Positions 7,386 to 64,000 are shown, numbered from the stretch's first letter. The stretch: 64,000 nt of DNA from Methanobacteriota archaeon (GCA_018650165.1 JABIGM010000033.1:3036-67035); one strand, 5' to 3'. Numbers and translations are program-made. Notes: a model not told the origin generated them from the sequence alone.

Positions 7386-7443
7386 GTTACTGCCGACACT
7401 GCATTCGTACTTGAAGACAAGCCTCTTATGAGCCCTATAGGGC

Positions 7444-30885: not shown

Positions 30886-30892
30886 CCACCTA
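30886..30892 (-). promoter_or_regulatory. Shine-Dalgarno TAGGTGG overlapping the giant gene stop codon (translational coupling to the 140-aa gene)
   Basis: The minus strand reads aaaaagTAGGTGGtagtgtgATG. GGTG(A/G) is complementary to the conserved archaeal 16S 3' end. Confidence 0.55.
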
Positions 30893-36238: not shown

Positions 36239-36300
36239 AGAATACACCTACACACCGCTCAGACGCCATAACTCTTGAATTAACCGGCGCCTGGTCAGTT

Positions 36301-42018: not shown

Positions 42019-42106
42019 CGGAATCACCGTCGAGCGCGGTAGCACCCAACTAGACATGAACCATTGAACCAGCCTTAATACAGTGATGGAGCATTGTTCA
42101 GACTAG

Positions 42107-43028: not shown

Positions 43029-43087
43029 GCCCTGTAAGGGCTCTCCTTGGTCAAACCATAAGAGGGGTGATGATTCTCTTCTGTCCG

Positions 43088-46173: not shown

Positions 46174-46640
46174 AAGGGGACTTTGTAAGCGATGAATCTG
46201 GAGCAAGTACCGAACTGGGATATATTTTCACTTTTTTACTTGGAGTAATTTTCCTTTCAATGTTCAGTGTGTGGGCATTTGGAATTGAAACTGCAACCAG
46301 AGAAAATTGGAATACGACTGCCGTTGATGTCAATATGGCAGATTTAGTTGGGGCTGTTGAACGTGCTGATCTTGCTAGCAGAGATGACGGCGATATTCGC
46401 TATGCAGAAGCAGTCAAATGGCGAGCTACGGAGGCAGATGAATCCCTATTCATTTTGACTCTTGATGATCAAGGTCTTCACTTAGACCATACTGAAAATG
46501 TTCTTGATAGAGATGTTTCAATTTCTGCCACAGGCGCTGGGACATATGATGGAAAAATCACCTTGTCAGGTATTACAGAAATCTGGGTTGTTTACGAAGA
46601 TGGCGTAACTTATCTCAGTAGTAAACGTCCTGATTTCTAA
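46170..46640 (+). CDS. Archaeal pilin-like protein (class III signal-like N-terminus), 156 aa
   Basis: MKGDFVSDESGA/STELGYIFTFLLGVIFLSMFSVWAF. ATGA overlap with the upstream gene, and SD GGAGG 7 nt upstream. Confidence 0.55.
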   Translation: MKGDFVSDESGASTELGYIFTFLLGVIFLSMFSVWAFGIETATRENWNTTAVDVNMADLVGAVERADLASRDDGDIRYAEAVKWRATEADESLFILTLDDQGLHLDHTENVLDRDVSISATGAGTYDGKITLSGITEIWVVYEDGVTYLSSKRPDF

Positions 46641-49166
46641 TCATCGGCCCATCACGGCAGTGTGAACCATCATCTGAACTTCGCGCATTCTGGTTTGCGC
46701 ACCTAATTCCCGGAACACAGAAAGAGCACGTTGTAGGTATTCCGTCCTTCTTTGTCTATCAGGGGCAACACCACCTAACCTTGCAAGAAGTTCACCAATC
46801 TGCATACGCAAGTCATTTGCTTCTGAAATAATCAAGGCTTCACGGTAACGTTCGAGTGCTTCTTCTATCTTGCCACTGTCTTGTAGAACTTCGCCAAGCA
46901 GGATTGAAACTTCCACCAATGCGAGTGGATCTCCTGCCTCGCCCATGGTTGCAAGAGCGTCTGTATAGTGGTGGAGAGCGAGATCTGCATCTCCGGATTT
47001 GGCATAATACCGACCTAGCACGGCGCGAGCACGTGCATGCAAAATCGGGTCATCTGATGATTCTGAACGCTCATACGCTGACAAAGCATGGTCACGGGCT
47101 CGTGTATGCTCACCCAAATCTAACAAGGAACGTGCAAGAACTATTTCTGCAGAGATTAGGCTGAGTGAGTCATCAGATGCGAGAATAGATTCTACCTCAG
47201 AATATGCTTCCAATGCCTTGACTTTATCGCCACTCCTTCGCAAAATGTAGCCCATATTATTGTATGATCTAGCGGCACCGACTGCATCACCGATTTCAAT
47301 ATATAATTCCAACGACTTACGGTGCATGCTCAAACTTGAGTTCGAGTCACCGCGCTTCAGAGCAATGTCGGCAAGGTTCGAAAGTATGTCTGCAATTACA
47401 TCTTTCAAACCTGCGGCTTCAGCAGGAGGTCTTGCTTTGCTAAATGCTTCTTCGGCCTCATCAAATCTTCCCAATAAAGACAATACTTCACCACGAATTC
47501 TATCAATTCGGCAAGAACTTTCAGCGACTATCGAGTTGGTATCGATTGATTCTAGTAAACCAAGAAGTTCAATGTGTCCTTCTTTAATCAGATTACGACC
47601 TTGCTCAATCACAATTTGTGTCGCTTCCTCATGGCGCGAAGAGGCTATTAAATGGTAAATTAATTCCAAAGAAATATGGCTCCCAGCACTCTGTTTCTGG
47701 TACCATGATACCGCTTTGTTGTGCAACTCTTCTTTGGATTGTTCATCGAGACTTTGGAGCAAGAATTCTCTAATCAGGTCGTGAACGTCATAGGCATCAG
47801 AATCAGCATGCCTAGCTAACCCCGATTCGACGAGCGAATCTAGTTCGTCGATATTTAATCCCTGTTCGGTAATCGCTTCAAGGGGAATTGGTTCTCTGAA
47901 AATTGAGAGAGCGCCCAATAGTCGCTTCTGCTCTCCAGAGAGTTTGGAAAAGATTTCGATGTTGACATAGTTTTCTAGGGACTCGTGGAATGCACCCGCT
48001 GATGCACCCCGGTTGATTAACTCGAGAACTAAGGGGTGTCCACGGCTCAATGAGTGAATATAGAGTAACTTTTCCTGATCTAAATCATCAAATGCTGAAA
48101 GTAATGAGCGGGTCGATTCTTGGTCGAGTCCTTCCAGTGGAAGGACCAATGACACAATGCGACCATCTGCATCTTTTAGTGGCACTACTTGACGGAAAGA
48201 CCGTGAAAAAATTACTAATCCTACATCTCCTTCAAACTCTACAAGGTCACGTGATATCGCCTGTATGGTTTGATGAAGCACCTTGTCGTTTACCTTGTGG
48301 TAGTCATCTATGACAATCAAGGCAGAAGAACCAGAGAGCGCATCAGTGATTATTCGAGCTGCATCTACTGCTTGTGGTACCGGAGTTGCCGAAATGTAAT
48401 CAGCGAGCATAGGGTCTCCAATACTAGATAGCCAGTCTGCTATGCTCTCAAAGAATGCACGACTTCCATCCCAATCTTGACATCTATGATACAATAAATT
48501 TCTTCGGTGCATGAAGGATTCGATTACTTTAGCTGCCATCGATGTTTTTCCAATTCCTGCAATTCCTGGAATCATCAAGGTGGTGGATCTCGCTTCAAGT
48601 AAATTAACCATATTTTCGAGTTCGGTCGAGCGACCATAAAAATGCCTGAGCCGAGGTAAATCACCTAGGCTAGTAACCAATTGTTTCTCAACATGTTTAG
48701 ATAAATCACGTTCAACTAAATCGGCAGAGAGAGAACGTACATCGAGTACTCCGTTATCATTGAGGTACCGAATTACATCCACTGGACGCATTGTAAATGG
48801 TATCTTATCCTGTATCTCACCAAGAGTAGAGGTGATTGTAGTCCCATCAGGAAGAATCGCTCTAAGCGGGAATTCACGAAGCCTCTTCCAAGTTTCTTCG
48901 GCAACATTCATTCCAGAATCCGTCAAGAAGTATGCCTTACGTTTACGGCTAACTCCCTGAACATGTGCTTGTCGTTCGACGAGGAAACCTTGGTCTTTCA
49001 ATCCAGAGATTGCTCTTGGCACGTTTGACCTTGCTATTGATACTGCATTTGCAATACCCATTTGCGATAACGCAAATGGTACTTCGACTGAACTCATGAA
49101 ATCTGAAAAATCAGACAAATGGAGCAGTATTCTCTCATGCACTCCTGGTTTTGGTCGTACAACCAT
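46641..49166 (-). CDS. wHTH - STAND/AAA P-loop NTPase - TPR signal-transduction regulator (841 aa)
   Basis: N-terminal winged helix: LSQMGIANAVSIARSNVPRAISGLKDQGFLVERQAHVQGVSRKRKAYFLTDSG. Walker A MIPGIAGIGKTSMA; Walker B ALIVIDDYHKV. C-terminal TPR-like repeats: ARSYNNMGYILRRSGDKVKALEAY, AVLGRYYAKSGDADLALHHY. SD GGAGGGTGA upstream. Confidence 0.8.
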   Translation of the reverse strand: MVVRPKPGVHERILLHLSDFSDFMSSVEVPFALSQMGIANAVSIARSNVPRAISGLKDQGFLVERQAHVQGVSRKRKAYFLTDSGMNVAEETWKRLREFPLRAILPDGTTITSTLGEIQDKIPFTMRPVDVIRYLNDNGVLDVRSLSADLVERDLSKHVEKQLVTSLGDLPRLRHFYGRSTELENMVNLLEARSTTLMIPGIAGIGKTSMAAKVIESFMHRRNLLYHRCQDWDGSRAFFESIADWLSSIGDPMLADYISATPVPQAVDAARIITDALSGSSALIVIDDYHKVNDKVLHQTIQAISRDLVEFEGDVGLVIFSRSFRQVVPLKDADGRIVSLVLPLEGLDQESTRSLLSAFDDLDQEKLLYIHSLSRGHPLVLELINRGASAGAFHESLENYVNIEIFSKLSGEQKRLLGALSIFREPIPLEAITEQGLNIDELDSLVESGLARHADSDAYDVHDLIREFLLQSLDEQSKEELHNKAVSWYQKQSAGSHISLELIYHLIASSRHEEATQIVIEQGRNLIKEGHIELLGLLESIDTNSIVAESSCRIDRIRGEVLSLLGRFDEAEEAFSKARPPAEAAGLKDVIADILSNLADIALKRGDSNSSLSMHRKSLELYIEIGDAVGAARSYNNMGYILRRSGDKVKALEAYSEVESILASDDSLSLISAEIVLARSLLDLGEHTRARDHALSAYERSESSDDPILHARARAVLGRYYAKSGDADLALHHYTDALATMGEAGDPLALVEVSILLGEVLQDSGKIEEALERYREALIISEANDLRMQIGELLARLGGVAPDRQRRTEYLQRALSVFRELGAQTRMREVQMMVHTAVMGR

Positions 49167-49220: not shown

Positions 49221-52200
49221 TTACTCTTGCGGTGGTGTGTAATTTGGATCTGCAACCCACTGGTTAGTTTGAGCATCCCAAATCCAGCCAGGGTGTTGAG
49301 GTTGAGCCGCAGGCATAGGAGCTGCTGCTGGTACCAAATCACCCGAAATAACTGAGTCGTGGAGATTGACATTCACATTTTGGACCATTGTTCCAGCAAC
49401 TGCTTGCTCTGCGGCTCTCGCTTTAGCCCAGGCGTAAGGATCTTCTTCCTTCTGTTGCTCTTGTGTCATTTCTGCAGCATCATCAAATTCTTCAAATTCG
49501 AGGAAGAAAAAGGTTCCAACTCCCAGAAGTACAGCCAGTGAAACAATTGCGATTACAACCCATAACCACGTTGGCATGCCTGCAGTTTCAGGCTCGCCGC
49601 TAGTGAGCATGATACTTGTTCCATCATTCTTACCGATTGTTTGGTCATTTTGGTCGAAATAGATACCATAACTTCCATCATCTCCTAACTGCGATGTAGA
49701 GATTTCCATTTTCCATGTCCCATCATCTTTGACCGTAGTTGAGTTCAAGTGTAAATCACCGCTAACAAGCCTAGCTTTAACTTGAGAACCGGGTAATCCA
49801 GTTCCTGTAAATAGGGCAGTGTCCTCAAAGGTTACAATTCCCACATCGGCTCTCTGTGCTGAAAATGTAACACCCTTGACAATGAAATTTACCTGATACG
49901 AATAAGAAACAGAATCATGAATATCCCTCGCTTCAAACATTACTCCAGACATCGACCAATCTGAGATTTCATTTGAAGATTGATACATTGAGTCCATTGG
50001 ATTGTAAATTGCTTTACCATCCGGAGTGATGCGAATATGGTAGGCATAATCATTGTCAATTGCTGTTTGTGGGTCATCATATATGTCGAATAGCAAGTGG
50101 CTCGATTCTGGACCTACGCCATCGGAGTCATTGAAGTAATCAAGCAAGTTGATTTCTAACCCTACTCCACACTTGTCGAATGAACTAGATTTTTCGTCAC
50201 AGAAAATTGTAATTGTTTCTATCCACCCAGATTCGTTGAAAGTTGGGGCGATATTATCAGCATCGGTCGGATTATCAATTACAACTCTGACAGTTTCAAT
50301 AATTGAATAATCGACACCGTCATATGACTTCACTTGGATTTCATATTGCTGGTCATGAATCAAGTCGCTGGTATCCCAATAAGTCTGCCATGCACCATTT
50401 GGCAAGAACGAAGTTACTGGGTCAGGTCCATTATTCAATTCGATACCACTAGCTAAATCTAAGATAGTAATCTCAACACGAGTTACTTGGCCATCATTGT
50501 CACGTGCTACACCACTGATGATGGTCTCTTCATCGGCTCTTACGCTTTCCATTGGCAGTGGCTCACTGATCTGGATAATCGGTATTCGGTTATCATTATC
50601 GATTGTGATTGTGACAGTAGCCGGGGTACAAATATCGATTATCTCATGGCAATAGTTTGAATCGCTTGCCCAAACTGCAAACGAATAATCACCACTAGGT
50701 AGGGATGAGAAATTCCAAGAATCAGACCAAACGGTTCCACCACCACTGTTTGCTGGATAGTTTGCCGAGTAATTATTTGGTCCAGTTACGCTGAACCAAA
50801 TATCTCTAATGTCACTACCCTGGACACCTTGATAGTCATCTGAAGAAGTCCCACTGAACAATACTTCTTGGCCATCGTGAGTTGAACCATCTAGAGGAGA
50901 TTCTAAAATAATGCTTGGAGGAGCAATATTCAACTTGAATACACGTGTGGTAACAATCGATTCATCTAGCCCATCATATGAGCGGACACGGAATGTTACA
51001 TCCTCTTCAAAGTGGTTTGCCATATCCCAATCAAAAGACCAAGTCTTGAATGGCCAGTTAGTCTTAGTCATCTCACCATTTGCGCCAGAGGTATCCGTTG
51101 CAAGGTACCAGTCGAGGCTTGCATGCGGTTGGATTTCGACTTTCTTAATGTCACCGAACTGTTTCAACCATGAATCATAGTCATTGAAATATGCTGGACC
51201 AATTCCATCGTGTGCCGAACCAGTAATTGTGATTGTTTGGGCAAAGGAAGTTCCATCATTTTGGTCAACACTTACCGATGGTGCCGTATTCGAAAGGTGA
51301 ATTACCTCATCGACCATTCCAGTCAAGGTGAACTCGTGCACTGATGTGCCTTTGCTGAATTTCTTTGCATCAACCGAGTATGTTGGCATTTCACGGTTTC
51401 CATTTTGACAATCAGGGTCCTGCCCATCAATCAATGTGTCACCATCATTATCTGCTCCATCTCCACAGGAGTCCTCTCCTGTATCCGTTGCAAGATGGTT
51501 CCAATTGGTGTCGATATGGAAATTAGATGGCAAAGTTACCCATGGAGTGAATCCATAAGCATCTGTTGTAACATTGTAAAGTGGCTTACCATTTGCATCC
51601 TTCATTGTGACGAGCGCTTCAGCAACTTGAGAATTGTCAGCCTTAACTTGGTAACGGACTAGCTCTCCTTGCTCTACCTGCACACCCCATGCGGTATTCT
51701 GGTTTTGGATGTGTATTTTGGAGCGGTCGAAATTTTGTATATCGGAATAAGTAAATGTAGTTGCATTCTGATTAACTTCCATTGACAGCGGCATGAAACG
51801 TGGTGGCCAATCTGCTGTAAGTGGGGCTTTGATACACTCAGTGAGATCCCATGGGCACTCTGCACCCATCCATGATAGTGAAACCGGATACATAATTCCT
51901 GCACCTGGGTCTGGCATGAATTCACTTTGAACAGCGACTCGAGACTCAGTAACATTGTAGATTTGAGTAGCGTTGGTGTAGGTATTACCAGAAAAGTATG
52001 CTATTGATGCATACTTGTTACCATAATTATCATCATAAAGTGAAATATTTGCGGCAAATTCTCCTACTTCGATATCGTTGTCTTGAGCATTTACAATTCC
52101 GCCCTTGATTCTGAATCCATCGCCTGCATTGTTAGTAACAGTGTTACCAATAAAAGTTGCAGATGACATGTATACATGGAAGGCTGGACATTGGAAGTCT

Positions 52201-53558
52201 CCACCGTACATGTAATCTGAATTACAGACTCCTGTATTGTCGGCGACTATATTGTTAGCAAAGTAAAGTCTGGCCTTGGTAGGTTGTGGTACATTCCATC
52301 CCTGGTCTTTATGGTGGTATTCTCCAATCAATACTGGCTCCTTTGCAGTACCGGTGATAGTATTGTTTTCCGCAGAAACATCTGATTCGCCATAAATCCA
52401 GATTCCATTCCAGCCACCAATCGGCCCGATTACGTTATTGTTAATCACAACCATTGATGCGCGTATTCCGAAACCAGAACCTTCAGCGGAACCAGAGATT
52501 GTATTCCTTTCAGCTACTACAATCGCACCATCATAAGCAGTTATTCCAGCACCATCTGTTGGACTAATTGTATTGTCTGAGATGATGAATTTGTGAGTTT
52601 GGCCATTGGTCACAAGGTGGGAATTCGTGTCAATTGCATTGCACTTTGTTGAGACTGTTGAGTTAGTCAAATAGCCACTACTTGACCGCAAGAACGCCCC
52701 ATATGAGTTCTGAGAAATAGAGATTGTATCCATTCGCACGAATGAGTCTTCCAGATAAATCGCTGAGCGACCGCCACCCTGGGCGCCACAATCGGTTTCT
52801 TCACCAGTGAATGCAGAATTCAAGACTTGCATTACAACTAACCCAGCACCAGCGCCATATGCTTGTATGGCAGCACCATGATATCCTTGTCCATCTATTC
52901 CAACTACAAAGGTCCCACCATCAAGGGTAGGCGAAGCACCATTGAATGCAAGTATATTCGTAGTATTGATGTCTTTGAATGTTGGATTTGTAACACTGAG
53001 ACTTGCACCATCAAAAATCATTGCACCGTATTTGATAGTTCCTTGGCCGTCGAGATCAACTGGTATCCCATAGGCTCCATCAAGTGTAACGTGGTTCATT
53101 CGTGTTAGAGATTGGTCGATAGTTTCTGCGAGGTAAAGACCCGAGCCGCATGCCATGTCAGGATTCCAAACTCCAGTCACATAGCAGCGCCCGGTTTGAT
53201 TTGGAGCAGGTGCTGCTGGTGCGCCCCAAATGAAGCGAACCGGCGAACCGGTACTGGCTTGTGAAGCACCACAAGCAGAATCTCCCGCGCAAATCGAACC
53301 CTGTATCTGAATATTTTTATCCGCAGGGATATTGATTGTAGTACCTGCATTTATGATAAGTTTCGCACCACCGGCAACAAGTAGATCCCCATCAAGATTC
53401 ATTACTCCTGTCCAGGTTTCTGTTCCAGTAATCGTACCAGATGTAGTTTCATTAACTGCAGTGACGACTGGAACAGTAGAAACCATTGTCACGAATAGCG
53501 ATAATAGAAATATACTGATTAGTCCCAAACTCTTACTTTTTTGAACATTGATAGACAT
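49221..53558 (-). CDS. Giant type-I surface protein (1445 aa) with right-handed parallel beta-helix (PbH1) repeats, Ig/cadherin-like domains, a TM and a W-rich cytoplasmic tail
   Basis: Signal MSINVQKSKSLGLISIFLLSLFVTMVSTVPVVTA. PbH1-like NTISGSAEGSGFGI, NNVIGPIGGWNGIWI, NNTITGTAKE, GNTVTNNAGDGFRI. Cys-rich CGDGADNDGDTLIDGQDPDC. TM WLWVVIAIVSLAVLLGVGTFFFL. The tail ends HPGWIWDAQTNQWVADPNYTPPQE. Confidence 0.85.
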   Translation of the reverse strand: MSINVQKSKSLGLISIFLLSLFVTMVSTVPVVTAVNETTSGTITGTETWTGVMNLDGDLLVAGGAKLIINAGTTINIPADKNIQIQGSICAGDSACGASQASTGSPVRFIWGAPAAPAPNQTGRCYVTGVWNPDMACGSGLYLAETIDQSLTRMNHVTLDGAYGIPVDLDGQGTIKYGAMIFDGASLSVTNPTFKDINTTNILAFNGASPTLDGGTFVVGIDGQGYHGAAIQAYGAGAGLVVMQVLNSAFTGEETDCGAQGGGRSAIYLEDSFVRMDTISISQNSYGAFLRSSSGYLTNSTVSTKCNAIDTNSHLVTNGQTHKFIISDNTISPTDGAGITAYDGAIVVAERNTISGSAEGSGFGIRASMVVINNNVIGPIGGWNGIWIYGESDVSAENNTITGTAKEPVLIGEYHHKDQGWNVPQPTKARLYFANNIVADNTGVCNSDYMYGGDFQCPAFHVYMSSATFIGNTVTNNAGDGFRIKGGIVNAQDNDIEVGEFAANISLYDDNYGNKYASIAYFSGNTYTNATQIYNVTESRVAVQSEFMPDPGAGIMYPVSLSWMGAECPWDLTECIKAPLTADWPPRFMPLSMEVNQNATTFTYSDIQNFDRSKIHIQNQNTAWGVQVEQGELVRYQVKADNSQVAEALVTMKDANGKPLYNVTTDAYGFTPWVTLPSNFHIDTNWNHLATDTGEDSCGDGADNDGDTLIDGQDPDCQNGNREMPTYSVDAKKFSKGTSVHEFTLTGMVDEVIHLSNTAPSVSVDQNDGTSFAQTITITGSAHDGIGPAYFNDYDSWLKQFGDIKKVEIQPHASLDWYLATDTSGANGEMTKTNWPFKTWSFDWDMANHFEEDVTFRVRSYDGLDESIVTTRVFKLNIAPPSIILESPLDGSTHDGQEVLFSGTSSDDYQGVQGSDIRDIWFSVTGPNNYSANYPANSGGGTVWSDSWNFSSLPSGDYSFAVWASDSNYCHEIIDICTPATVTITIDNDNRIPIIQISEPLPMESVRADEETIISGVARDNDGQVTRVEITILDLASGIELNNGPDPVTSFLPNGAWQTYWDTSDLIHDQQYEIQVKSYDGVDYSIIETVRVVIDNPTDADNIAPTFNESGWIETITIFCDEKSSSFDKCGVGLEINLLDYFNDSDGVGPESSHLLFDIYDDPQTAIDNDYAYHIRITPDGKAIYNPMDSMYQSSNEISDWSMSGVMFEARDIHDSVSYSYQVNFIVKGVTFSAQRADVGIVTFEDTALFTGTGLPGSQVKARLVSGDLHLNSTTVKDDGTWKMEISTSQLGDDGSYGIYFDQNDQTIGKNDGTSIMLTSGEPETAGMPTWLWVVIAIVSLAVLLGVGTFFFLEFEEFDDAAEMTQEQQKEEDPYAWAKARAAEQAVAGTMVQNVNVNLHDSVISGDLVPAAAPMPAAQPQHPGWIWDAQTNQWVADPNYTPPQE

Positions 53559-53750: not shown

Positions 53751-54965
53751 TTAGCAGATGTTGGCAAGGCGGATTTCATCCAACCAATCGCTTCCATCTA
53801 TCGATCCGTATCCCCATTGAGAGTCGTGCTCAATATCGGCTTCAAGAGATTCAGCAGAAACCATCAGAGCTTCCTTTACTTGAGTAATACATTCAAGTGA
53901 AGGATTGTCTTTCAAGTTTGGTTCAGCCTCTAAGATTAGTGCTAATATTCCCGACACAAATACGGTGGCATCGCTTGTGCCAGTGGATGAATAGTATTCT
54001 CCACCTTTGGCTGTCGAGATTATACCGACACCAGGTGCTGAAATTTCTGGTTTAAGGTGCGGACTTACTCTTTCATCACCACTACTGTCGACAGGTGCGC
54101 CAATTGACGAACCACTCCACACAGTACCATCTCTTTCCAAAGCTGCCACTGAGATAACCTCGGCAACATTTGACGGTGTCGAAACGCGGCCATCATCTGA
54201 AACTCCACCATCGTTGCCTGCTGCTGCAACAACATAGACGCCATTTGCTAGAGCAAGACGTACGGCATTAGTAGTCGGTCCTTCTCGCTCAGCCTCTGGG
54301 TCGCTTTCACCACCTAAAGAAAGTGAGATTATATCGGCTTCAAAGGTTCTCCAACACCATTCAATTGCATTTGCAACTAATTGTTCATCACCACTGTTTC
54401 CCCCAGAACCATCTTCTCCGAGGGCTGCAGCCATACCAAGTGTCACTCTAGGAGCCACCCCCTGAAGATAACCATCGGCTACCAGTATACCGGCCATCAT
54501 TGTCCCATGGGCAAGTAAACCGTAGTCAACCGGACCACTCGAACCTGAAATGAAATCCTTGAAGACTAAATCTACGCCCGCTAAATCCGGATGAGTGGTG
54601 TCGATTCCAGTATCTACCATGCAGACTCTGACGTCGGAACCAGTAAGCCCAGAATCCTGTAAATCTCTTGCTCCAACCTCTTCAAAAGCCCATTCTGAAG
54701 TAGGAGGTGGTAAATCGATTAGCAAATACTGGGAAACAGCCCAGAAAATAATTACAATGAGTACTAGTATACCAGTATTAGCAATCCTTTGCGAATTTCT
54801 ACGTTGACGAGAGATAACTGGAACCGGTTCAGGGTCCCACCCCAGAACTTCACTGCGCCAACCCTCCTGGTGCCCGATGGTATTAGGATCGGTAGCAGAG
54901 AGAATTCGTGAATCTGTAGGTTCAGGAATAAACTCGACTCCCTTGAGTTCATTATCCTCCCACAT
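53751..54965 (-). CDS. Type-II membrane-anchored subtilisin-like (S8) serine protease (404 aa)
   Basis: Cytoplasmic N-tail, then SRQRRNSQRIAN plus TM TGILVLIVIIFWAVSQYLLI. Catalytic motifs: MVDTGIDTTHPDL (Asp), AHGTMMAGIL (His), STGTSDATVFVSG (Ser). Confidence 0.85.
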   Translation of the reverse strand: MWEDNELKGVEFIPEPTDSRILSATDPNTIGHQEGWRSEVLGWDPEPVPVISRQRRNSQRIANTGILVLIVIIFWAVSQYLLIDLPPPTSEWAFEEVGARDLQDSGLTGSDVRVCMVDTGIDTTHPDLAGVDLVFKDFISGSSGPVDYGLLAHGTMMAGILVADGYLQGVAPRVTLGMAAALGEDGSGGNSGDEQLVANAIEWCWRTFEADIISLSLGGESDPEAEREGPTTNAVRLALANGVYVVAAAGNDGGVSDDGRVSTPSNVAEVISVAALERDGTVWSGSSIGAPVDSSGDERVSPHLKPEISAPGVGIISTAKGGEYYSSTGTSDATVFVSGILALILEAEPNLKDNPSLECITQVKEALMVSAESLEADIEHDSQWGYGSIDGSDWLDEIRLANIC

Positions 54966-55056: not shown

Positions 55057-58000
55057 TCAGAACCGGCTTGAGGAACCCTTGCGAGCAGTCTTGTATCCAC
55101 CATAAAGTACCAGTATGGTCAAAATCACAACTACAATCATCAAATACGAGTCATTACCATCGCCATCAGCCACATTGGAGAACTTTATCTTGAAGTCGAC
55201 ATCTGAGACATCTTCGCTCGGTGTTCCAATTACCTCGAGGGACACTGTTAATCCTGCAGGTCCAGGTGGCATGTTAGAATATGGGAATTCTGCAAACGCT
55301 GTTCCATTTGCTGGAACAGTGATTGTAGTTTGCTTTTGGGTGTACTCCGTTCCATCCTGTGCAACGAGATAGACAATTACATCACTCGCTGTTAGGAAAC
55401 CATTATTCTGGATTGGAATTCGGAAGATACCGTTTTCATTAGCCAAAGCATCTGAAGCCCTTGGTTCAATTGAATCTTCTAGGATTACCAACTTTGCAAT
55501 TGAAATGATCGCAGTAGTAGAGCCTGTTTGTGTTTCAACATCGCCCTCACTTTCGGCAGTATAGTCAATATCACATTCATCAACTGTAGAATTAGTTGGT
55601 GCGTAAATTGTGAAAGATTGGCTACGGGTACTGTCTGCTGCAACTGTCAGATTAGAAATTGGTGGAGCCACCAACCAACCTGCATCGATACAAGATTGTT
55701 CAAGCATTGATTGCACAGTAATTGCGTCATCACCATTTCCTGAGTTAGAAACCGTCAAGGTAACAGTGGTTTCGCCACCATCTCCAACACCAATCGCTGC
55801 TGGAGCGCCACTCAAACTGATATTGAATTGTTGTGGCACTGCTACACGTACACTCGCTTCACTTAGGCCGCTATCAGAGGCAAAACGCATGTTTACCGCG
55901 TGTCCATCATCATAAGTACGTGTTTGGTTTTGTAGCGGAAGAGTAATTCGAACATCAATTTCACGGTACAATACTTGGTTTGCATCGCTATTATTCAATC
56001 CGATACCCATTGTGACATCCATTATGCTAGTCCAATTCCCATCACCGGTACTGTTGAGGTATTCGATAGTCCAATCATCTGAATCTTGAGACACACCAAC
56101 TCCTGCAGATGCAGTAAATTCATCTGAAACCTCAGTACCCTCGTAGGTCAGACTCAGCTTCATGGTGATTACCTTGTAGTCATTATCTTCGCCTTCAAGC
56201 GCTGTGATTTCAGTGAAATTTCCACTAGTGAAACTAGCAGTAGTTGCGTCAACTGATATTACTTCAACAACCATGTCTGAATTAACTCTGCGTGAGAAAT
56301 CCATGACTCTATCTTCAGCAGTATCCTGTCCAACGTTAATTGAAAGTCCAGAACTATAATCCATTGTCAGATTCAAATCGTGCTGTACTGTATCGAACTC
56401 GCTGTTCAAATCAACACAACTGGTCGGAGTATCACACGCAGGTAGAACCAGACTGAGTTCACCATTCTCATCAAATTGGGCCATCCATGAAACTCCATCA
56501 CCAAGGTCGACTTCCACATCGATACCAGATGCGTTGTTGACTGTAGTACCTACTAAGTTGGTCCATGTTGTCGTGAGTGACAATCTTCCACCAAGTTCCA
56601 TTACTAGGTCAAGTGATGCTCCCTCTTGTACCGAGGCTTCTAAGAGACCAATTACGATACCTCCTCCGTTATCGTTGGAGTCAGAACCTTCAACAACAAC
56701 GACCCAATTTCCAGGCTGTATTACCCCGTTCCACGAAAGTGTATCATTTTCATAAGAAGTGGTTAGGTCTGTCACTGGGCTGCGTACAATTCCGCTTGCC
56801 GGATACAAGGTTACAGTTGCACCATCTAAGCGCAGACTGTCTGGATTGTTGTCAGTAACATTACCAGAAACTGCAACGACACCAGCACTCATTTCGAAAT
56901 CTCGGCTTTCATGGGTATCATTTACCACAAAGAATGAACTGTAGTTATCAGAATAAGTTACTGAAGTAAATCCAGCCTTTGAGGCATTGACTGTGTAATT
57001 ATCACGGATTGGAACGAATAGAGACCATACTCCGTCTACATCAGTCACAAGTGATTCGTTTAATCCACTAGCACTAGTGACTGAGACATTTGCGCCCTCG
57101 ATTCCTTCACTTGCAGAAGGCATATCGTTTTCGTCAAGGTCCCAGAAGAATTTACCGCCTATTTTAACCGATTTATCGACAGAAATATTGGCTTCCCAAA
57201 CTCCGTTTACCATTGCAGTTGCTGAGTAGTAGACTCCTGTATCCAAATTCCACATTTCTAAATTCTCAGTTCGATTCAATTCAAGAGTCCAGTTACCAGG
57301 CATAAGAACTTCAGTAATCATACCTTCATTATCTGAAGGGCCCAAACTGACATTGCCTAGCCCATCAAGACTGACTGCAGTGATACGCGTACCAGCAATA
57401 TTGACACCGGTAATTGCTTCTTGCAGGTTTAATGTAACATTCATTGCTGTCGTTGTCTGCCAGTCAATATCCGAAACAGCCCCATCCACTGTGATAAAGT
57501 CACGATAGATTTCAGTAGCATTGCTATCGTCAGCTTGGAAGTGTGCAACCTCTACATACCAATCTCCTTGTGGGATATATTCTGCAAAAGTTCCATTTTC
57601 ATCTGTTACAAGAGGATGGAAATCATTTCCAGCCTCGTTACGTAGCCAAACGGTTGAGTTTTCCATGGCAAAATCATTTTCCATAGTGACATTTCCACTT
57701 ACTAAGTATTCTGGTGAAAGCATGATGTCAACCGATTCACCAGGTGGTGCAAGACCGATTCCAAGACCAGGCAGTGCATCTGCATGCCTGCGGTAGTCGC
57801 TCGCATTTTCGTCACGAGGGTCATCTTCTGACAGGTATATGATGTAATTTCCAACTGACAATTCTACTGTCAGCTCTCCGGTAACCGCATCATACATATC
57901 TTCTGTAACTTCTAGATCGAGTCCAAAGTCATCAACTGCGGTGATATTGAACATTGGGGATATAGCGGTACCATTTTCCCAAGCGCCATCAAAGGCTGTA

Positions 58001-61000
58001 TCTAAGAAGACACGGAATGTTAGTGAAATATTTGCAGGGTTAGCAATCAACTCAACTTGACCTGAATAATTTTCAGTATCGATTGTAACAGGGGCTACAT
58101 TCATGTCGGTGTTGGAGACAGTGAATGTCCAGTTACCAACATCAAGGTGCATAATGAAAGTTCCAACAGCATCAATCTCTTCACGCCATTCGAGTCCATT
58201 TTCATCTGTTGCAATTACTTCAGTTCCTTCAGAACCAGTGATTCCTTCACCCCACTGGGTGCCATTATCTAGTGTTGAATTACGCAACCAAACTGTTCCT
58301 TGAATCAAATTGGTACTTACCAAGTACAAATCAGCATCAGTAACTAGAGAAGCGTTCTCAATAAGTAATCCTGCTGTAAGAGTATTCGAACCAGCGAAAG
58401 TATCTGCTGTAATGTGGAATTGTATTCCCTCAGGCAGACGCAATGAGTAGGTTCCGTTTGAATCTGTGGTAGCAGATAGAATAATCGCTCCCGAACGTGC
58501 CTCTACATCAACATTAGTTGCTGCTTCCCTGTCGATTTCAGGGATTTCAGATGGGCTGTTAAATTGGCCTGTACTAATTAGCAGTTCATCGAATGACCAA
58601 ACAGTTCCGTTTACCCAAACACTGACTGAATAGTTTAGATCTAATTCCAAGTCTTCTGTTGTTATTTCAAATTCCTGCCATAGAACATAGTCTGGGTCTG
58701 TTTCATCTGAGATAATCCATTCACCCATGTCTATTTCTGCATAGACAATTCCATTTTCATCAGAGACAGCGGAAACCGAATAATCGTTCAAATCGGTACT
58801 CTCTGTGTTGGTAAAGGTAATTGTTCGATTTGCTAGAACAAACTCTGAATCTCCACCACCAAGGTTGAGGGTTATGTCACGCTTAGTAGGAACTGACCTA
58901 GATAAGGTTACATTTTCTGAATCCAATCCAACGGAGAAGTTCTCTTCGATTTCATACCATCCATCTTGATCTATGTCCACGCGCCACTGGTAAGCACCAG
59001 TTGCAAGAGGGCCATAACTGAATGAACCATTTTCATCTGTTAAGATTTCAACAGGTGCCGTCTCATCTGGCAACTCAAAGTCAATTAGTTCAATTGTTGC
59101 ATTTGGTAACGGCGTTGGTTCACTATCGGTAAGATAATCTGCATACAGTATATCTTCAAAGATTGAACCTGGCATGGTCATCTCAAGTCCCGAAGTTGGT
59201 GAAATTGTAACATCGACAGGGTCTGGAAGTAAGATTTCTCGTCCACTTCCCATCATTGCAATCATATTGTAAGTACCTGGCATTAATCCAGTCTTGTAAA
59301 ATGAACCTGGTGCAACCATTGGTCCAGAGAAGGTTCCTTCCCCAATGAATTGTCCAGTACCGTTAGCAGTACCGATTCCTTGATAGATTCCAGTTCCTTC
59401 AAAGGTTTCTCCGTCTAAGTCTTTGACAACTATGACTTGACCATCTGCGGTCATTCTACCACTGGCGTTGATGGTTCCAGCAAACAAGTAAGTGTTCTCT
59501 TCATCTGTCAAACAAGCTGTATGTGTCATGTTTACAGTTTCACCCTCAGTTCCATTTTCAACGGCTTCTTCCCAAGTAGGCATTACTTGCGAAGTGACAT
59601 TGCCAAGTGTTTCAGTATCACAATCTGGTGCAGCATAATCAATCCATGTTGCTACAATAGAACCTGCTCCATCGAATGAAGCGTTTGCGGTATAGGAACG
59701 ACCATCCATTACAGCACGTGTGTAATTTCCTGTAAATCCACGTACGATTCCTGTGTTTCCTTGGGTATCGAATGTACCCTCACTGGTGAATATTACTTCT
59801 CCGGTTCCTGGAATTATTCTTGTTTGTCCAGGTTCCGTAGTGAATGACCCACTCGTTGTGGTTACAGTATAGTTTTCAGTCATGTCCCATATATTACGTA
59901 GAACAAATTCTACATCATCGATTGCTTGGCCTTCGAATGATTCATGGCCAGACCATGTGACGGTTCCTGCAATACCACTTGATGGAACAGTAATGTCAAA
60001 GTTTCCATCGAAAGGTGCCAATCTGTCTGCTTGTTGGCCTGTGACGTTGTATGTTGATTCACCCATCCATGACATGTTCGAAACCTTTCCAAGAAGTGCC
60101 GTAATGATGTTAGTGTCACGCTCTTCGTTAGTTTCAACAGTCAAGTCGCCTAGTCCACTTGCGTACTCGCCAGTCTTGAAGACATCCTTTGCTGCAAGAT
60201 CATCGAATTCACCTGCAAATGCAGATACTCTGATTTTTCCAGCAGGTACTGTGTATGACCACTCGCCATTTTCATCTGAATCGGTGTATCCGATTGGAAT
60301 CCAATAGGTGTCAGAGTCTTCGTCGGTAACTCCTTCACCAGAGAATGCATCTCTTTCGAGAAGCATTCGAACATTTGGCAATGGTGCACCATCATCAGAC
60401 ATTGTGACGGTTCCACCGACTTCAACACCAGGATAGTACTTCATTATCTTGACAAGTGTATTTGCTTGACCAAGAGTATCGAATTCATTATCTGGGTTAT
60501 ACCAGTTAGAAATCGTGAAGTGGTTCATCATTGCACCCGGTAGAGGTACAGCATTAGTCATCATTGTGTTTGGAGTTCCTGACTGTCCAAAGTGTTGGCC
60601 TGGTTGCTCTGTCGTTTCAAATCCGAGTGATGAAGCGCCATACCCCACATAGGTACGGGCGAGCATAGTATCAAAGAATACAGGGGTATGGTCGATTCTT
60701 ATGTCGACCAAACTTAATGGGTCAAATGTCGCACCAGATTGCTGGTTCAACACATCCTTTCGCATCTCAGCATCGAATTCTTCACGGGTCATCTCATCAC
60801 TGAATTGGCCACGTGTGGTCATGTAAACCTCATCCATAAAGGTAGAGAAATCCTGTCCTGACAAAATCGTTGGAGCAGCGAAAATACCAGTTGGATTTCC
60901 GCCACTGTATTCGGAACTGTATAGTCCACCACGTGGGTACAAACGGTTGTCGATTGCAAGATATCTAATTTCGTGGTCTCTTGTAATCATTTCACCAGGT

Positions 61001-63948
61001 GCGCCATTGTAGTCTTGTACAGAATAAACGGCATTATCAGATAAGTCAGCGTAAAGAGAGTGTAATTCTTCAGAGTCAAGAGATGATGTTAGCATCTGTG
61101 TGATCAAAGCAATTGCAGCATTCTTTCGGTGGATTCCTGTACTAACCGAATCATATTCTTCGATTAAATCAGCAGTGTACCAATAGTCGCCAACGATGTA
61201 GTGTGTTGTGTTTTCCTCATTATCAACTGGTGATCTAACATTATTGTTGAATATTGCCTCAGCATCAAGTTTATCGGAAAATGCGTCCCCAGTACAAGAG
61301 GTTAGGTCTTCCTCTCCAGAGATACAAGGTAGTATAACTCCGTTCTCGTACACTTTGTACAAGGTAGAAGATTCTGCAACAACGCCATCAACAACTGCTT
61401 GACCTTCAGCCATAACCATATCGCCATTGACAAGAGTTACCATGAATACACGGTCGATTACATCTTCAGATTCCATGTTTGTTTGAATCTTCGTAAACTC
61501 TAACTTTTGGTCTTCAGAAAGATGAGCTCCAAGGGAACTCATGAATGAAGCGGTATGTACACGGTTATCATCTTGGGCTTCGCTATATGCCAAATCAGCC
61601 TCAGAGAGTCTCCAGATGAACATTGCAGCAAGGTCATCTTGGTTTCTAGCAAGTAGCATATTTCCTGTTGCAGGAATTCCAGACTGGAAGTTATCCGATA
61701 CAGATGGGTGGTCTCCGGTTTCTAATGCCTGGAATCCATAATCCCACCAAGAGACAAACGCAGGTCTGTCTGAATATGATTGGTCTTTATCTTGATTAGA
61801 TAACCATTCATAGGCTTGGTTCCATCCACGGTCATTGAATCCTGAACCAAATGAGCCCAGGTACCATCGAGACTCTTCATCGTATGCATCATCATTTAGT
61901 AGTGAGAATCCAAAATCATTCCATCGTAGAATGTCAGGTATTACATTGTAAATTGTATTGTCCATTTCAGCTTCATGATTTGAAGAAGATGGCATAGCAG
62001 CATCAATTCCATAGGTTGCATGTTGGCCGATGAGCATAATTAGAACCATTCCGATTGCGCTGAACTGAGGGGTTCGCCATAGTGCCTTTCGAGCATTCGA
62101 AATTCTTTCACCCGGCGTTCGTATTCCCATGCGCCTCCAAGAACGAGCCATGTTTCCAGCACCACTAGCTTTCCAAAGAGTCACGATACCCCATGAACCC
62201 ATTATTGCCATAGCCGGAGAGGCGTTGAACAGGAATCTTCCTGCGGACCAAGCCATGTAAGAGGCGACTATAACCCACATTCCAAGAATTAAACGCGATT
62301 GGTTCTTCTTTACGATTCCATCCCATAGTGCAAGTAATCCCATTACGATTGCAAGTATGAAAACAACTGGTCCGAATGATGCAAAGAGTTGCCCACGCTT
62401 AGGGGCGCTTGCTTCAGCAATGGTACCGAAAATCTTGTTCTTTGTGAAGTAACCAGATCCTGTAGTCAATACATTCCATGCATTTGAAATATCTAATATC
62501 TGTAATGCATAAAGTATACCCCCAAAAGCAATACCTCCAGTTAATAGTGAACCGAAGACCAATAGCCACGGCTTGTCACGGAATCCAGTTGTAATCCATG
62601 CGATTGCAAGAGTAAAGCCACCAATAAACAATAGAGGTTGTAGTCCGGTTGAATTTAGAATCAAATCCAACTGTGGGTGACCATAGAATGGTAGAACCAT
62701 AAGGAAGATTGTTCCAAGCATCAGAATATTCATTGTTGAAAGGATAGTACTATCTTTTCTCCTGAACATATTCATTACTACTTGCACGAAGTATGCAAGG
62801 AAGATAATTGCTGGGCCGTAAACGAATCCTTTCCACCCCAGAGCCACAATACTGAAACAAACACCAGAGGCAATTGCATTGGCAGATGCCTTTCTTCGGT
62901 GCTTTAGAACATCCGCCATAGCACGAATGATTCCGGAAGGCGATGCATTTGTGTTACGTGTAAGACGTTCGTCTCCACCTGCTTTAACAGCCCTTAGATA
63001 GAACATGAATGCAGCAGTCAAGAATAACAATACATACGAATCGTGGTCAGCCATAGCCCAAGTAGACTTCTGAACGTGTGTTGGCATGAAAGCAATAAGC
63101 CAAGCAGCGATTACTCCAGCTCCCTTTCCGAAATGGTCCTTGGCAATAGCCCCCATTGGGAAGATGATTAGAGCACCATATACTGCAGGTAGTGCAAGCA
63201 TTGCATACCAAACCGCATCTCCGGAACCTAGTCCCAGATTTGCGAGAAGCATTCCAACCAAAGCAATTGACCAAGAGAACAATGGCGGACGAGGATTGAT
63301 TCCCCCAACTGGGTAATTACGATCGGCATCCCAAATCAGGTGTGCATTCTCTGCAATTACATAGTCGACTACACGCTTCATGTACCAAGGGTCAGAACCT
63401 CCAGTAAGGTCCCATGATTCTAGACCCGATGAGTTCATTGAAGGTACGAAATACCATTGTATCCTAATCGCTAATGCGACCATAAAAGCCATGAAAGTCA
63501 TAATTCCAGCCCAGTGGTTAGACCAAAATACACGAGCCTGACTCGGTTCGTGGAGTTCACGGTTCATCCAGCCACCATATGTCTCATGGGTTGAAAACCA
63601 ATAGATTACAACACCGATGAAGAAGGTGATTCCGAACCAAATCCATACTGCCCAGGTTCCTTCGAGATTGTCACTAGACCAATGTCCAGATTCATACAGT
63701 GATGAAACCATATACAAAATCCACATTGAACTGAGCATTAATGCACGTGTAAACCATCTCTCAGCACACATCCATGCACAACAAAGAGCAATAACACCAG
63801 TTAGTGCTGCTGGCCAGAATCCAATGTAACCGTGGTACCCTTCGACAGACCAAATTGCCAAGATATCTAAATCTCCAAGGCTGTTGAAGTAGGCCATTAT
63901 TGCAACGTGAGTTGCTGCCCAAACCGCCAAAGCAATTTGTAGAGGCAT
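55057..63948 (-). CDS. aglB: Dolichyl-phosphooligosaccharide-protein glycotransferase AglB (STT3 family), at least 2963 aa, with a huge C-terminal extension and a terminal TM anchor
   Basis: Multi-TM N-terminal region with GGSDPWYMKR (first acidic loop) and WAMADHDSYV. WWDYG motif at complement(61735..61749) in SWWDYGFQALETGDHPSVSDNFQSG. At least 8 CarboxypepD_reg-like repeats (e.g. TDENGSFSYGPLATGAYQWRV, TDSNGTYSLRLPEGIQFHI, TDENGTFAEYIPQGDWYVEV, TDVDGVWSLFVPIRDNYTVNASKAGF). C-terminal TM YLMIVVVILTILVLYGGYKTARK. The frame has no stop between 63949 and 64000, so the true start may lie outside the window. Confidence 0.85.
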   Translation of the reverse strand: MPLQIALAVWAATHVAIMAYFNSLGDLDILAIWSVEGYHGYIGFWPAALTGVIALCCAWMCAERWFTRALMLSSMWILYMVSSLYESGHWSSDNLEGTWAVWIWFGITFFIGVVIYWFSTHETYGGWMNRELHEPSQARVFWSNHWAGIMTFMAFMVALAIRIQWYFVPSMNSSGLESWDLTGGSDPWYMKRVVDYVIAENAHLIWDADRNYPVGGINPRPPLFSWSIALVGMLLANLGLGSGDAVWYAMLALPAVYGALIIFPMGAIAKDHFGKGAGVIAAWLIAFMPTHVQKSTWAMADHDSYVLLFLTAAFMFYLRAVKAGGDERLTRNTNASPSGIIRAMADVLKHRRKASANAIASGVCFSIVALGWKGFVYGPAIIFLAYFVQVVMNMFRRKDSTILSTMNILMLGTIFLMVLPFYGHPQLDLILNSTGLQPLLFIGGFTLAIAWITTGFRDKPWLLVFGSLLTGGIAFGGILYALQILDISNAWNVLTTGSGYFTKNKIFGTIAEASAPKRGQLFASFGPVVFILAIVMGLLALWDGIVKKNQSRLILGMWVIVASYMAWSAGRFLFNASPAMAIMGSWGIVTLWKASGAGNMARSWRRMGIRTPGERISNARKALWRTPQFSAIGMVLIMLIGQHATYGIDAAMPSSSNHEAEMDNTIYNVIPDILRWNDFGFSLLNDDAYDEESRWYLGSFGSGFNDRGWNQAYEWLSNQDKDQSYSDRPAFVSWWDYGFQALETGDHPSVSDNFQSGIPATGNMLLARNQDDLAAMFIWRLSEADLAYSEAQDDNRVHTASFMSSLGAHLSEDQKLEFTKIQTNMESEDVIDRVFMVTLVNGDMVMAEGQAVVDGVVAESSTLYKVYENGVILPCISGEEDLTSCTGDAFSDKLDAEAIFNNNVRSPVDNEENTTHYIVGDYWYTADLIEEYDSVSTGIHRKNAAIALITQMLTSSLDSEELHSLYADLSDNAVYSVQDYNGAPGEMITRDHEIRYLAIDNRLYPRGGLYSSEYSGGNPTGIFAAPTILSGQDFSTFMDEVYMTTRGQFSDEMTREEFDAEMRKDVLNQQSGATFDPLSLVDIRIDHTPVFFDTMLARTYVGYGASSLGFETTEQPGQHFGQSGTPNTMMTNAVPLPGAMMNHFTISNWYNPDNEFDTLGQANTLVKIMKYYPGVEVGGTVTMSDDGAPLPNVRMLLERDAFSGEGVTDEDSDTYWIPIGYTDSDENGEWSYTVPAGKIRVSAFAGEFDDLAAKDVFKTGEYASGLGDLTVETNEERDTNIITALLGKVSNMSWMGESTYNVTGQQADRLAPFDGNFDITVPSSGIAGTVTWSGHESFEGQAIDDVEFVLRNIWDMTENYTVTTTSGSFTTEPGQTRIIPGTGEVIFTSEGTFDTQGNTGIVRGFTGNYTRAVMDGRSYTANASFDGAGSIVATWIDYAAPDCDTETLGNVTSQVMPTWEEAVENGTEGETVNMTHTACLTDEENTYLFAGTINASGRMTADGQVIVVKDLDGETFEGTGIYQGIGTANGTGQFIGEGTFSGPMVAPGSFYKTGLMPGTYNMIAMMGSGREILLPDPVDVTISPTSGLEMTMPGSIFEDILYADYLTDSEPTPLPNATIELIDFELPDETAPVEILTDENGSFSYGPLATGAYQWRVDIDQDGWYEIEENFSVGLDSENVTLSRSVPTKRDITLNLGGGDSEFVLANRTITFTNTESTDLNDYSVSAVSDENGIVYAEIDMGEWIISDETDPDYVLWQEFEITTEDLELDLNYSVSVWVNGTVWSFDELLISTGQFNSPSEIPEIDREAATNVDVEARSGAIILSATTDSNGTYSLRLPEGIQFHITADTFAGSNTLTAGLLIENASLVTDADLYLVSTNLIQGTVWLRNSTLDNGTQWGEGITGSEGTEVIATDENGLEWREEIDAVGTFIMHLDVGNWTFTVSNTDMNVAPVTIDTENYSGQVELIANPANISLTFRVFLDTAFDGAWENGTAISPMFNITAVDDFGLDLEVTEDMYDAVTGELTVELSVGNYIIYLSEDDPRDENASDYRRHADALPGLGIGLAPPGESVDIMLSPEYLVSGNVTMENDFAMENSTVWLRNEAGNDFHPLVTDENGTFAEYIPQGDWYVEVAHFQADDSNATEIYRDFITVDGAVSDIDWQTTTAMNVTLNLQEAITGVNIAGTRITAVSLDGLGNVSLGPSDNEGMITEVLMPGNWTLELNRTENLEMWNLDTGVYYSATAMVNGVWEANISVDKSVKIGGKFFWDLDENDMPSASEGIEGANVSVTSASGLNESLVTDVDGVWSLFVPIRDNYTVNASKAGFTSVTYSDNYSSFFVVNDTHESRDFEMSAGVVAVSGNVTDNNPDSLRLDGATVTLYPASGIVRSPVTDLTTSYENDTLSWNGVIQPGNWVVVVEGSDSNDNGGGIVIGLLEASVQEGASLDLVMELGGRLSLTTTWTNLVGTTVNNASGIDVEVDLGDGVSWMAQFDENGELSLVLPACDTPTSCVDLNSEFDTVQHDLNLTMDYSSGLSINVGQDTAEDRVMDFSRRVNSDMVVEVISVDATTASFTSGNFTEITALEGEDNDYKVITMKLSLTYEGTEVSDEFTASAGVGVSQDSDDWTIEYLNSTGDGNWTSIMDVTMGIGLNNSDANQVLYREIDVRITLPLQNQTRTYDDGHAVNMRFASDSGLSEASVRVAVPQQFNISLSGAPAAIGVGDGGETTVTLTVSNSGNGDDAITVQSMLEQSCIDAGWLVAPPISNLTVAADSTRSQSFTIYAPTNSTVDECDIDYTAESEGDVETQTGSTTAIISIAKLVILEDSIEPRASDALANENGIFRIPIQNNGFLTASDVIVYLVAQDGTEYTQKQTTITVPANGTAFAEFPYSNMPPGPAGLTVSLEVIGTPSEDVSDVDFKIKFSNVADGDGNDSYLMIVVVILTILVLYGGYKTARKGSSSRF

Positions 63949-64000
63949 GGTTGCACGATTCCAGTTGCCATCGTGTGCCTTGATGTAACCAAACCATCCC

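Follow-up and report, generated by a model that had tools for sequence, protein, structure and literature searches.

A giant AglB-type oligosaccharyltransferase of Poseidoniales with an additional N-terminal membrane module and a beta-sandwich stalk predicted to be anchored at both ends

Characterised AglB oligosaccharyltransferases (OSTs) are roughly 600-1,050 amino acid residues (aa) in length, begin at the first transmembrane (TM) helix of the core, TM1, and end in a compact globular domain; the A. fulgidus AglB-L chain of PDB 3WAJ has 875 aa. The eukaryotic OST complex contains a catalytic subunit of the same family and, conceptually, places extra TM helices and lumenal or extracellular beta-domains around it, these accessory parts being separate polypeptides. 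NOMO, of the BOS complex, is a rod of transthyretin/CarboxypepD_reg-like beta-sandwiches with a single C-terminal TM anchor; neither NOMO nor the S. acidocaldarius S-layer stalk protein SlaB is fused to an enzyme, and both are anchored at one end only. Here we describe a gene at positions 55057-64000, minus strand, of a 64,000-nucleotide stretch of DNA from a Methanobacteriota archaeon (GCA_018650165.1 JABIGM010000033.1:3036-67035), which was analysed as a whole and is called the window. The gene encodes an AglB, referred to as giant AglB, that carries all of these parts on one chain: in comparison with AglB-L it shows about 360 additional residues (10 TM helices) before TM1, a stalk of about 1,750 aa and a second membrane anchor. 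Unlike NOMO and SlaB it is both fused and double-anchored, and its likeness to the eukaryotic OST is an analogy only, since the N-terminal module shows no sequence or fold match to any solved protein. No AglB of such size or architecture was found described in the full-text literature, including a 2024 review of archaeal N-glycosylation, although an earlier mention in AglB surveys is possible.

Translation of the minus strand of the window shows a single stop-free frame from 63999 to 55060 (2,980 codons) that is open at the window edge, with its first ATG inside the window at 63948. The stop codon is located at 55057-55059 and the product ends in KTARKGSSSRF. A database search retrieved a complete gene product of 3,183 aa (P0001), which differs from the window product by one single-residue indel and one substitution. 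Its start codon (L001:10001) lies 202 codons past base 64000, the window edge being at L001:10606, and is preceded by an in-frame stop 15 nt upstream, so that 2,980 of the 3,183 codons are inside the window. The unbroken 3,183-aa frame is found on two independent assemblies, ENA ERZ4231644 NODE_297 and Logan SRR12939245. The whole protein has a mass of about 340 kDa before glycans and about 24 predicted TM helices. A previous reading made from the sequence alone (the sequence-only reading) had proposed an AglB about three times the normal size, with a frame open at the window edge and a WWDYG motif at residues 734-738; all three hold, residue 734 from ATG 63948 being residue 751 from the window edge and the true length being about three to four times that of characterised AglBs. 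Homologues are treated here in two tiers, the Poseidoniales (Marine Group II) family (tier 1) and a wider Thermoplasmatota class (tier 2); unless otherwise indicated, residue numbers refer to the full protein, and all coordinates of giant AglB are on the minus strand.

According to Pfam, giant AglB is a member of the STT3 family (PF02516; E=3e-15, 57.1 bits against a cut-off of 24.5), and phmmer matched it to A. fulgidus AglB-L 3WAJ (E=2.9e-10) and to yeast STT3 6C26 (E=7e-4). By sequence, the region in common with AglB-L (PDB 3WAJ/5GMY) is the GT-C/STT3 fold: TM1 and external loop (EL) 1 align, GGxDPWY, DH[DH] and WWDYG are common to both proteins, and giant AglB shows a TIxE-type EL5 motif. 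On the basis of PF02516 and the 3WAJ alignment, the GT-C/STT3 TM core, of about 13 TM helices, spans residues 364-870 (61996-63516). The first acidic motif, GGSDPWY in EL1 (63382-63402; residues 402-408, residue 200 from the window edge), is aligned with GGNDPWY of 3WAJ and shows at least 90% conservation within the Poseidoniales family; the Asp of GGxDPWY is D47 in AfAglB-L. The second acidic motif, ADHDS in EL2 (63037-63051; residues 519-523), pairs with NDHHI of 3WAJ, and its A-D-H-D residues are near-invariant in the giant AglB family. The EL5 motif TIAE (62413-62424; residues 728-731) was assigned by motif, the residue-level alignment to the solved structure having stopped short of EL5; the T, A and E of this motif show conservation of at least 90% in tier 1, and TIAEAQ is conserved in tier 2, where it was used as scan pattern. 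WWDYG, the catalytic and sequon-binding motif (61735-61749; residues 953-957), shows no variation among 58 aligned homologues or among 50 tier-2 proteins. It lies in an extracellular C-terminal globular catalytic domain (60406-61995; residues 871-1400), delimited by PDB matches, conservation and secondary structure predicted by AlphaFold2 (AF2), and the PDB matches around it are the AglB C-terminal domains 3VGP and 3VU0. This domain contains a lineage-specific, less conserved insertion of about 205 aa (60991-61605, from the conservation profile) and a candidate equivalent of the DK/MI motif, RYLAIDNRL (60940-60966; residues 1214-1222), in a segment separated from WWDYG by about 260 aa. The STT3/AglB core that the sequence-only reading had recognised from the acidic loops and WWDYG is therefore well founded in PF02516, the 3WAJ alignment and motif conservation. 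As the catalytic motifs are under strong purifying selection, giant AglB is most likely an active OST.

Residues 4-17 of A. fulgidus AglB-L align with residues 359-370 of giant AglB, so that about 355-363 aa ahead of the canonical TM1 are extra. An AF2 model of residues 1-400 of P0001, based on a 69-sequence alignment, is compact (pLDDT 76.8, pTM 0.76) and shows 10 TM helices and a beta-hairpin before the TM1-equivalent helix. The sequence-only reading had also placed extra hydrophobic helices here; their presence stands, but their extent had been put at about 190 aa and five helices, whereas the AglB-L alignment and AF2 give about 360 aa and 10 helices. The distal part of this module is located at 63517-63999 (residues 203-363, window residues 1-161). 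Lysine plus arginine residues number eight in its inside loops and two in its outside loops (family means of 7.5 and 1.1, respectively); by the positive-inside rule the module is predicted to be N-in and thus to begin and end in the cytoplasm, and its even helix count fits a TM1 that enters from the cytoplasm. The module shows no Pfam match at E<=1 and no PDB fold match by Foldseek (best E=0.8), and hhalign shows neither internal duplication nor likeness to the STT3 core. A search with residues 1-361 found no homologue beyond the giant AglB family, only fragments of the same gene. Two apparently stand-alone genes for this module on long contigs (P0301 and P0316) were rejected as frameshift splits in error-prone assemblies. 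The module is limited to Poseidoniales, where its conservation in a 126-protein alignment is 0.60, and tier-2 AglBs do not have it; it is the most lineage-specific and most novel part of giant AglB.

WWDYG is followed by 2,225 aa, in agreement with the length of about 2,225 aa given in the sequence-only reading. Beyond the catalytic domain, a stalk of about 1,510 aa of beta-sandwich modules (55870-60405; residues 1401-2913) was delimited by Pfam, motif count, hhalign, AF2 and Foldseek; including two C-terminal modules, the whole stalk has about 1,750 aa (residues 1401-3150). Pfam finds CarboxypepD_reg (PF13620; 78.2 bits against a cut-off of 32.3) in three stretches of the whole protein and in 2+2 stretches of segments. 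The signature TD-x-[DN]-G marks nine CarboxypepD_reg/transthyretin-like modules, at residues 1441, 1857, 1949, 2048, 2134, 2335, 2425, 2522 and 2712. The at least eight repeats claimed earlier are thus present at the motif level, with about four significant stretches in Pfam. Because of the strong divergence of the modules, hhalign with two well-defined ones finds only a few of the others (E of about 1e-5 for the best match and about 1e-3 to 2e-2 for the remainder), and the number of modules was therefore taken from the signature motif and AF2 secondary structure. A highly conserved long-strand beta domain (59299-59841; residues ~1589-1769) is modelled with a pLDDT of about 90, compared with 75.7 for the stalk. 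Foldseek aligned the modelled stalk with Gram-positive pilin and adhesin rods, TIE 6FWV (E=1e-11), SpaA, BcpA, SdrD and RrgB, as well as with SlaB (8qox_B; E=1.9e-7). The SlaB match is the only S-layer likeness here and no lattice-forming partner was identified for giant AglB; matches to NOMO1-like domains are weak and under Pfam thresholds. From these models, we propose a rod-shaped stalk composed of about 14-15 beta-sandwich domains. The two C-terminal Ig-like modules (55189-55869; residues 2914-3140), which contain TVTLTVSNSGNGDD, resemble CARDB (PF07705; E=0.0027, 18.3 bits, under the 22.7 cut-off) and the NCBIfam model NF041740, 'choice-of-anchor T' (E=2.6e-11, 43 bits, under the 70 cut-off). 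The earlier assignment of a CARDB-like module is thus kept as a resemblance but not as Pfam membership.

The stalk (residues 1401-3150) contains 55 N-X-S/T sequons, compared with 20.2 +/- 3.9 expected from composition-preserving shuffles (n=2,000), a 2.7-fold enrichment with z=8.9 (family median z=7.2); 55 sequons were reached in none of the 2,000 shuffles. Furthermore, 15 stalk sequon positions are conserved in at least 80% of the homologues, among them N1510, N1520, N1578, N1749, N2212 and N2268. This enrichment and the conserved sites argue for real occupancy, and the stalk sequons are probably glycosylated by giant AglB itself. The C-terminal anchor (55060-55155; residues 3151-3183) consists of a TM helix (55093-55146), with a hydrophobic segment of 18 residues (2952-2969 in window numbering) and a hydropathy of 2.17, and a basic cytoplasmic tail that ends in Phe (55060-55092). 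The C-terminal TM helix with K/R tail and terminal Phe ([RKP]F) is present in 125 of the 126 family members, in accordance with the TM helix and basic tail noted before. The window protein shows no PGF tripeptide before the C-terminal helix, where it reads GDGNDSYLMIVVV, and was therefore rejected as a PGF-CTERM/archaeosortase A substrate.

The best 120 matches to the full-length query are 2,716-3,245 aa in length, with at least 91% coverage and 46-100% identity, and all exceed 3,100 aa except one truncated entry; named entries among them belong to Poseidoniaceae, Poseidoniales or 'Euryarchaeota' metagenome-assembled genomes. In a local alignment, 126 Poseidoniales cluster representatives are collinear, with 3,185 +/- 16 aa, and by sequence every Marine Group II archaeon examined has a conserved giant AglB. 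Conservation across this alignment is highest in the WWDYG region (0.89), followed by segment 1206-1400 (0.78), the TM core (0.76) and the proximal stalk (0.72), and it falls to 0.46-0.62 in the distal stalk. Public databases contain many members of this family, labelled with uninformative or wrong names such as 'hypothetical protein', 'glycosyltransferase family 39', 'carboxypeptidase regulatory-like domain-containing protein' and 'peptide transporter'. An OST transcript has been reported to be enriched in active MGIIb, in a study that does not state the size of the gene (PMC9723583).

An exhaustive HMMER search with the core found 827 relatives among 1.84 billion cluster representatives. Among the best 150 of these relatives, 99 have at least 2,000 aa, and 97 of the 99 show a C-terminal TM helix and basic tail. 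A scan of GTDB species genomes found relatives in at least 465 Thermoplasmatota genomes, and most of the 80 GTDB loci that were kept hold one open frame of 2,000-2,500 aa with a C-terminal anchor. Tier-2 names include Methanomassiliicoccales, the DHVE2 group, Marine Group III, Ca. Halarchaeoplasma, Natronoplasma, Saliniplasma and Lutacidiplasma, and the cultured Aciduliprofundum sp. MAR08-339 has a 2,081-aa member annotated as 'putative membrane protein, required for N-linked glycosylation'. Tier-2 AglBs (2,040-2,775 aa, 29-38% core identity) have in common with the Poseidoniales form the STT3 core, the run of CarboxypepD_reg-like modules, two CARDB-like modules and the C-terminal TM helix with basic tail; however, they do not have the 10-TM module, their WWDYG is located at about residue 570-710 in most cases instead of about 950, and they are about 1,000 aa shorter. 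The tails also differ: Poseidoniales tails end in [RK]F, while tier-2 tails show R/K runs and some are PGF-CTERM-like. PGF- or PSF-type tails (PGFE/PSFE, PGF-CTERM-like) were found in nine tier-2 representatives (P0144, P0154, P0159, P0161, P0165, P0182, P0203, P0217 and P0222), and locus L060 likewise contains a tier-2 giant AglB with a PGF-CTERM-like end. Tails of this type are also known in archaeal surface glycoproteins, and in the PGF-tailed lineages the OST itself may be an archaeosortase substrate. AglBs of such sizes are therefore common, in Poseidoniales and, at 2,000-2,800 aa, across Thermoplasmatota, but no publication describing them was found.

We consider it probable that giant AglB is a catalytically competent AglB OST permanently built into a large glycosylated cell-surface structure. 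The chain would run from the 10-helix N-terminal module through the 13-TM GT-C core, the extracellular WWDYG domain and the beta-sandwich rod to the C-terminal TM helix. Through this helix, with its short basic tail, the rod would come back to the membrane, which would make the extracellular part an arch tethered at both ends. The core would move lipid-linked glycans onto the Asn of N-X-S/T in exported proteins, with its own stalk (about 55 sequons) probably being a substrate too, and the protein would supply a fixed-length, heavily glycosylated envelope element, a glycocalyx or spacer, keeping the glycosylation site inside that layer. With 14-15 beta-domains of an assumed 3.5-4 nm each, a fully extended stalk would measure about 50 nm, and with both ends held in the membrane it could form an arch some 20-25 nm high. 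Several points weigh against this interpretation. The segment RY[LF]A[IV]D[NS]RL is kept in both tiers but reads DxxL instead of DxxK or MxxI, so it gives no confident DK/MI assignment. The nearest NCBIfam model, TIGR04154, archaeo_STT3, matches residues 371-989 (174.6 bits, E=3.3e-51) below its trusted cut-off of 450, and by sequence giant AglB is a relative and not a member of this archaeosortase-A-associated OST subfamily. AF2 confidence is only moderate (pLDDT about 76). Activity, glycan occupancy and surface location are all properties that we infer, and a second AglB of ordinary size, should these genomes carry one, could own the general OST role. In addition, if the cultured Aciduliprofundum boonei, a relative of the tier-2 DHVE2 lineage, has an S-layer, giant AglB is not necessarily the main envelope protein. 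A more far-reaching version of this interpretation, which we regard as unlikely, is that in Poseidoniales, and in a simpler form across Thermoplasmatota, the OST itself is one of the principal architectural components of the envelope: an arch of constant length, glycosylated by its own activity, by which the thickness of a glycocalyx or pseudo-periplasm would be set. The 10-TM module would then be a new accessory membrane domain that would, for example, handle or flip the lipid-linked glycan or dock to the secretion machinery, as a functional counterpart of the eukaryotic OST accessory subunits fused in one chain.

The giant frame could in principle come from a frameshift or from a chimeric join of an ordinary AglB to a neighbouring surface-protein gene, since gene calls in JGI 3300046170 and 3300046167 give the locus as two to three genes (e.g., 365+895+1908 aa). 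The split points differ, however, and the neighbouring purD and CarS are likewise broken, which points to indel errors in those assemblies. Intact frames are present on both assemblies mentioned above and in more than 120 clusters from ENA, NCBI, JGI, Logan and TARA, and most of the 80 GTDB species loci show the tier-2 form as one unbroken frame of 2,000-2,500 aa. An assembly or annotation artefact, and with it the stop, frameshift or misassembly between core and repeats that the sequence-only reading had thought able to undo its proposal, is already refuted by the two assemblies, the collinear full-length homologues (more than 120) and the GTDB loci. In the loci of these two JGI assemblies (L007, 695 kb, and L008, 108 kb, respectively) the giant gene, purD and CarS are all fragmented by apparent indels, and through gene calls from such assemblies, N-terminal-module and stalk proteins that are only spuriously 'stand-alone' enter protein databases.

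A different possibility is that the single chain is a precursor, cut on the outer face into an OST of normal size and a tail-anchored surface glycoprotein; the fusion would then provide 1:1 synthesis and co-translational glycosylation of the latter. The cut could be made in Poseidoniales by a membrane-anchored S8 subtilase encoded directly downstream of giant AglB (53751-54965, minus strand; PF00082, E=1.6e-39), which shows a strongly hydrophobic N-terminal segment (58-87, signal anchor) and zero sequons, or in some relatives by an archaeosortase at the PGF-like tails, such tails being cleaved in known archaeosortase substrates. The gene order with the subtilase is retained at 46-61% protein identity, and the likeness of the stalk to surface-layer and pilin rods also agrees with a separate surface glycoprotein. 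Nevertheless, no conserved linker or cleavage motif was identified, and the junction of catalytic domain and stalk (1206-1600) is among the most conserved parts and, according to the prediction, forms folded structure instead of a linker. None of the 12 tier-2 loci checked contains the subtilase gene; in those of the Methanomassiliicoccales type a small CARDB-like membrane protein is encoded downstream instead. The adjacency of the subtilase alone is weak evidence because gene order is broadly syntenic in these genomes. We thus give this precursor little credence. Still less probable is a protein that acts mainly as a particle- or cell-binding adhesin, with the STT3 part as a vestigial multi-pass anchor and another AglB in charge of glycosylation. 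The best structural matches of the stalk are the Gram-positive pilins and adhesins listed above, and the window also encodes a pilin-like cluster and several further surface proteins of giant size; however, the catalytic motifs are invariant or nearly so at 46-100% identity and into the 30%-identity tier, and conservation is highest in the TM core and the WWDYG region. Repeat number usually varies in adhesins, whereas here the length is fixed to +/- 16 aa and the stalk is collinear, and an adhesin that reaches outwards would not usually be tethered twice. The OST with an adhesin-like stalk of the sequence-only reading is therefore kept as to the resemblance of the rod and not as to the adhesin character: a structural, glycosylated element of the envelope agrees better with the fixed length, collinearity and double anchoring than a variable adhesin does.

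The uncultured Marine Group II archaea are among the most abundant archaea of the surface ocean. A conserved 24-TM protein of about 340 kDa that combines enzyme and rod is a concrete candidate component of their cell envelope and a target for metaproteomics and cryo-electron tomography. If the OST built into the cell-surface structure is correct, a single-chain OST is able to bear large accessory membrane and extracellular modules, and giant AglB would be a natural instance of an OST fused to its likely substrate. The shorter form in the cultured Aciduliprofundum makes this idea open to experiment now.

The genes CarS and purD are located upstream of giant AglB. Downstream, beyond the S8 subtilase, are genes encoding a 1,445-aa beta-helix surface protein, a STAND-TPR NTPase and archaeal pilin-like proteins, and the gene order including the subtilase is retained in homologous loci at 61% and 46% protein identity. 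A functional link between the subtilase and giant AglB may exist in Poseidoniales; as a universal partner the subtilase was rejected, since it is missing in the 12 tier-2 loci checked. Tier-2 loci of the Methanomassiliicoccales type contain, directly after the giant gene (about 9387-10481 in L009, L011, L016, L044, L055, L069, L078 and L086), a gene of about 250-290 aa that overlaps or adjoins the AglB stop codon. Its product, with a signal peptide, CARDB-like domains rich in sequons, a TM helix and a K/R tail, is a candidate for a conserved partner subunit. In the window, three pilin-like genes with archaeal type IV N-termini (Pilin_N, DUF7289 and DUF7266; 43025-46640, plus strand) adjoin the gene of the STAND-type AAA/TPR NTPase (46641-49166, minus strand), an arrangement that is kept in distant Poseidoniales loci.

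Sequon density is 20.9 per 1,000 residues in giant AglB. Two further ORFs with an N-terminal signal-like segment show similar densities of 20.2 (11865-14246, plus strand; no Pfam match) and 17.8 (36331-42057, minus strand) sequons per 1,000 residues. The sequence-only reading had noted many sequon-rich giant glycoprotein candidates next to the AglB; several neighbouring ORFs are indeed large, and some are sequon-rich. Three giant surface ORFs are encoded on the minus strand: one of 1,657 aa with S8 peptidase and CARDB domains (2535-7508), one of 1,785 aa (30890-36247) and the beta-helix protein of 1,445 aa (49221-53558). They have a common layout of signal peptide, large extracellular part, C-terminal TM helix and cytoplasmic tail of about 90-170 aa. 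The tail motif PPxPPSGLPxGWxxxQWxHYGHQ ends two of the three, and the third shows a looser version, HPGWIWDAQTNQW; this shared tail may be a cytoplasmic docking or sorting signal for the large surface proteins of this organism.

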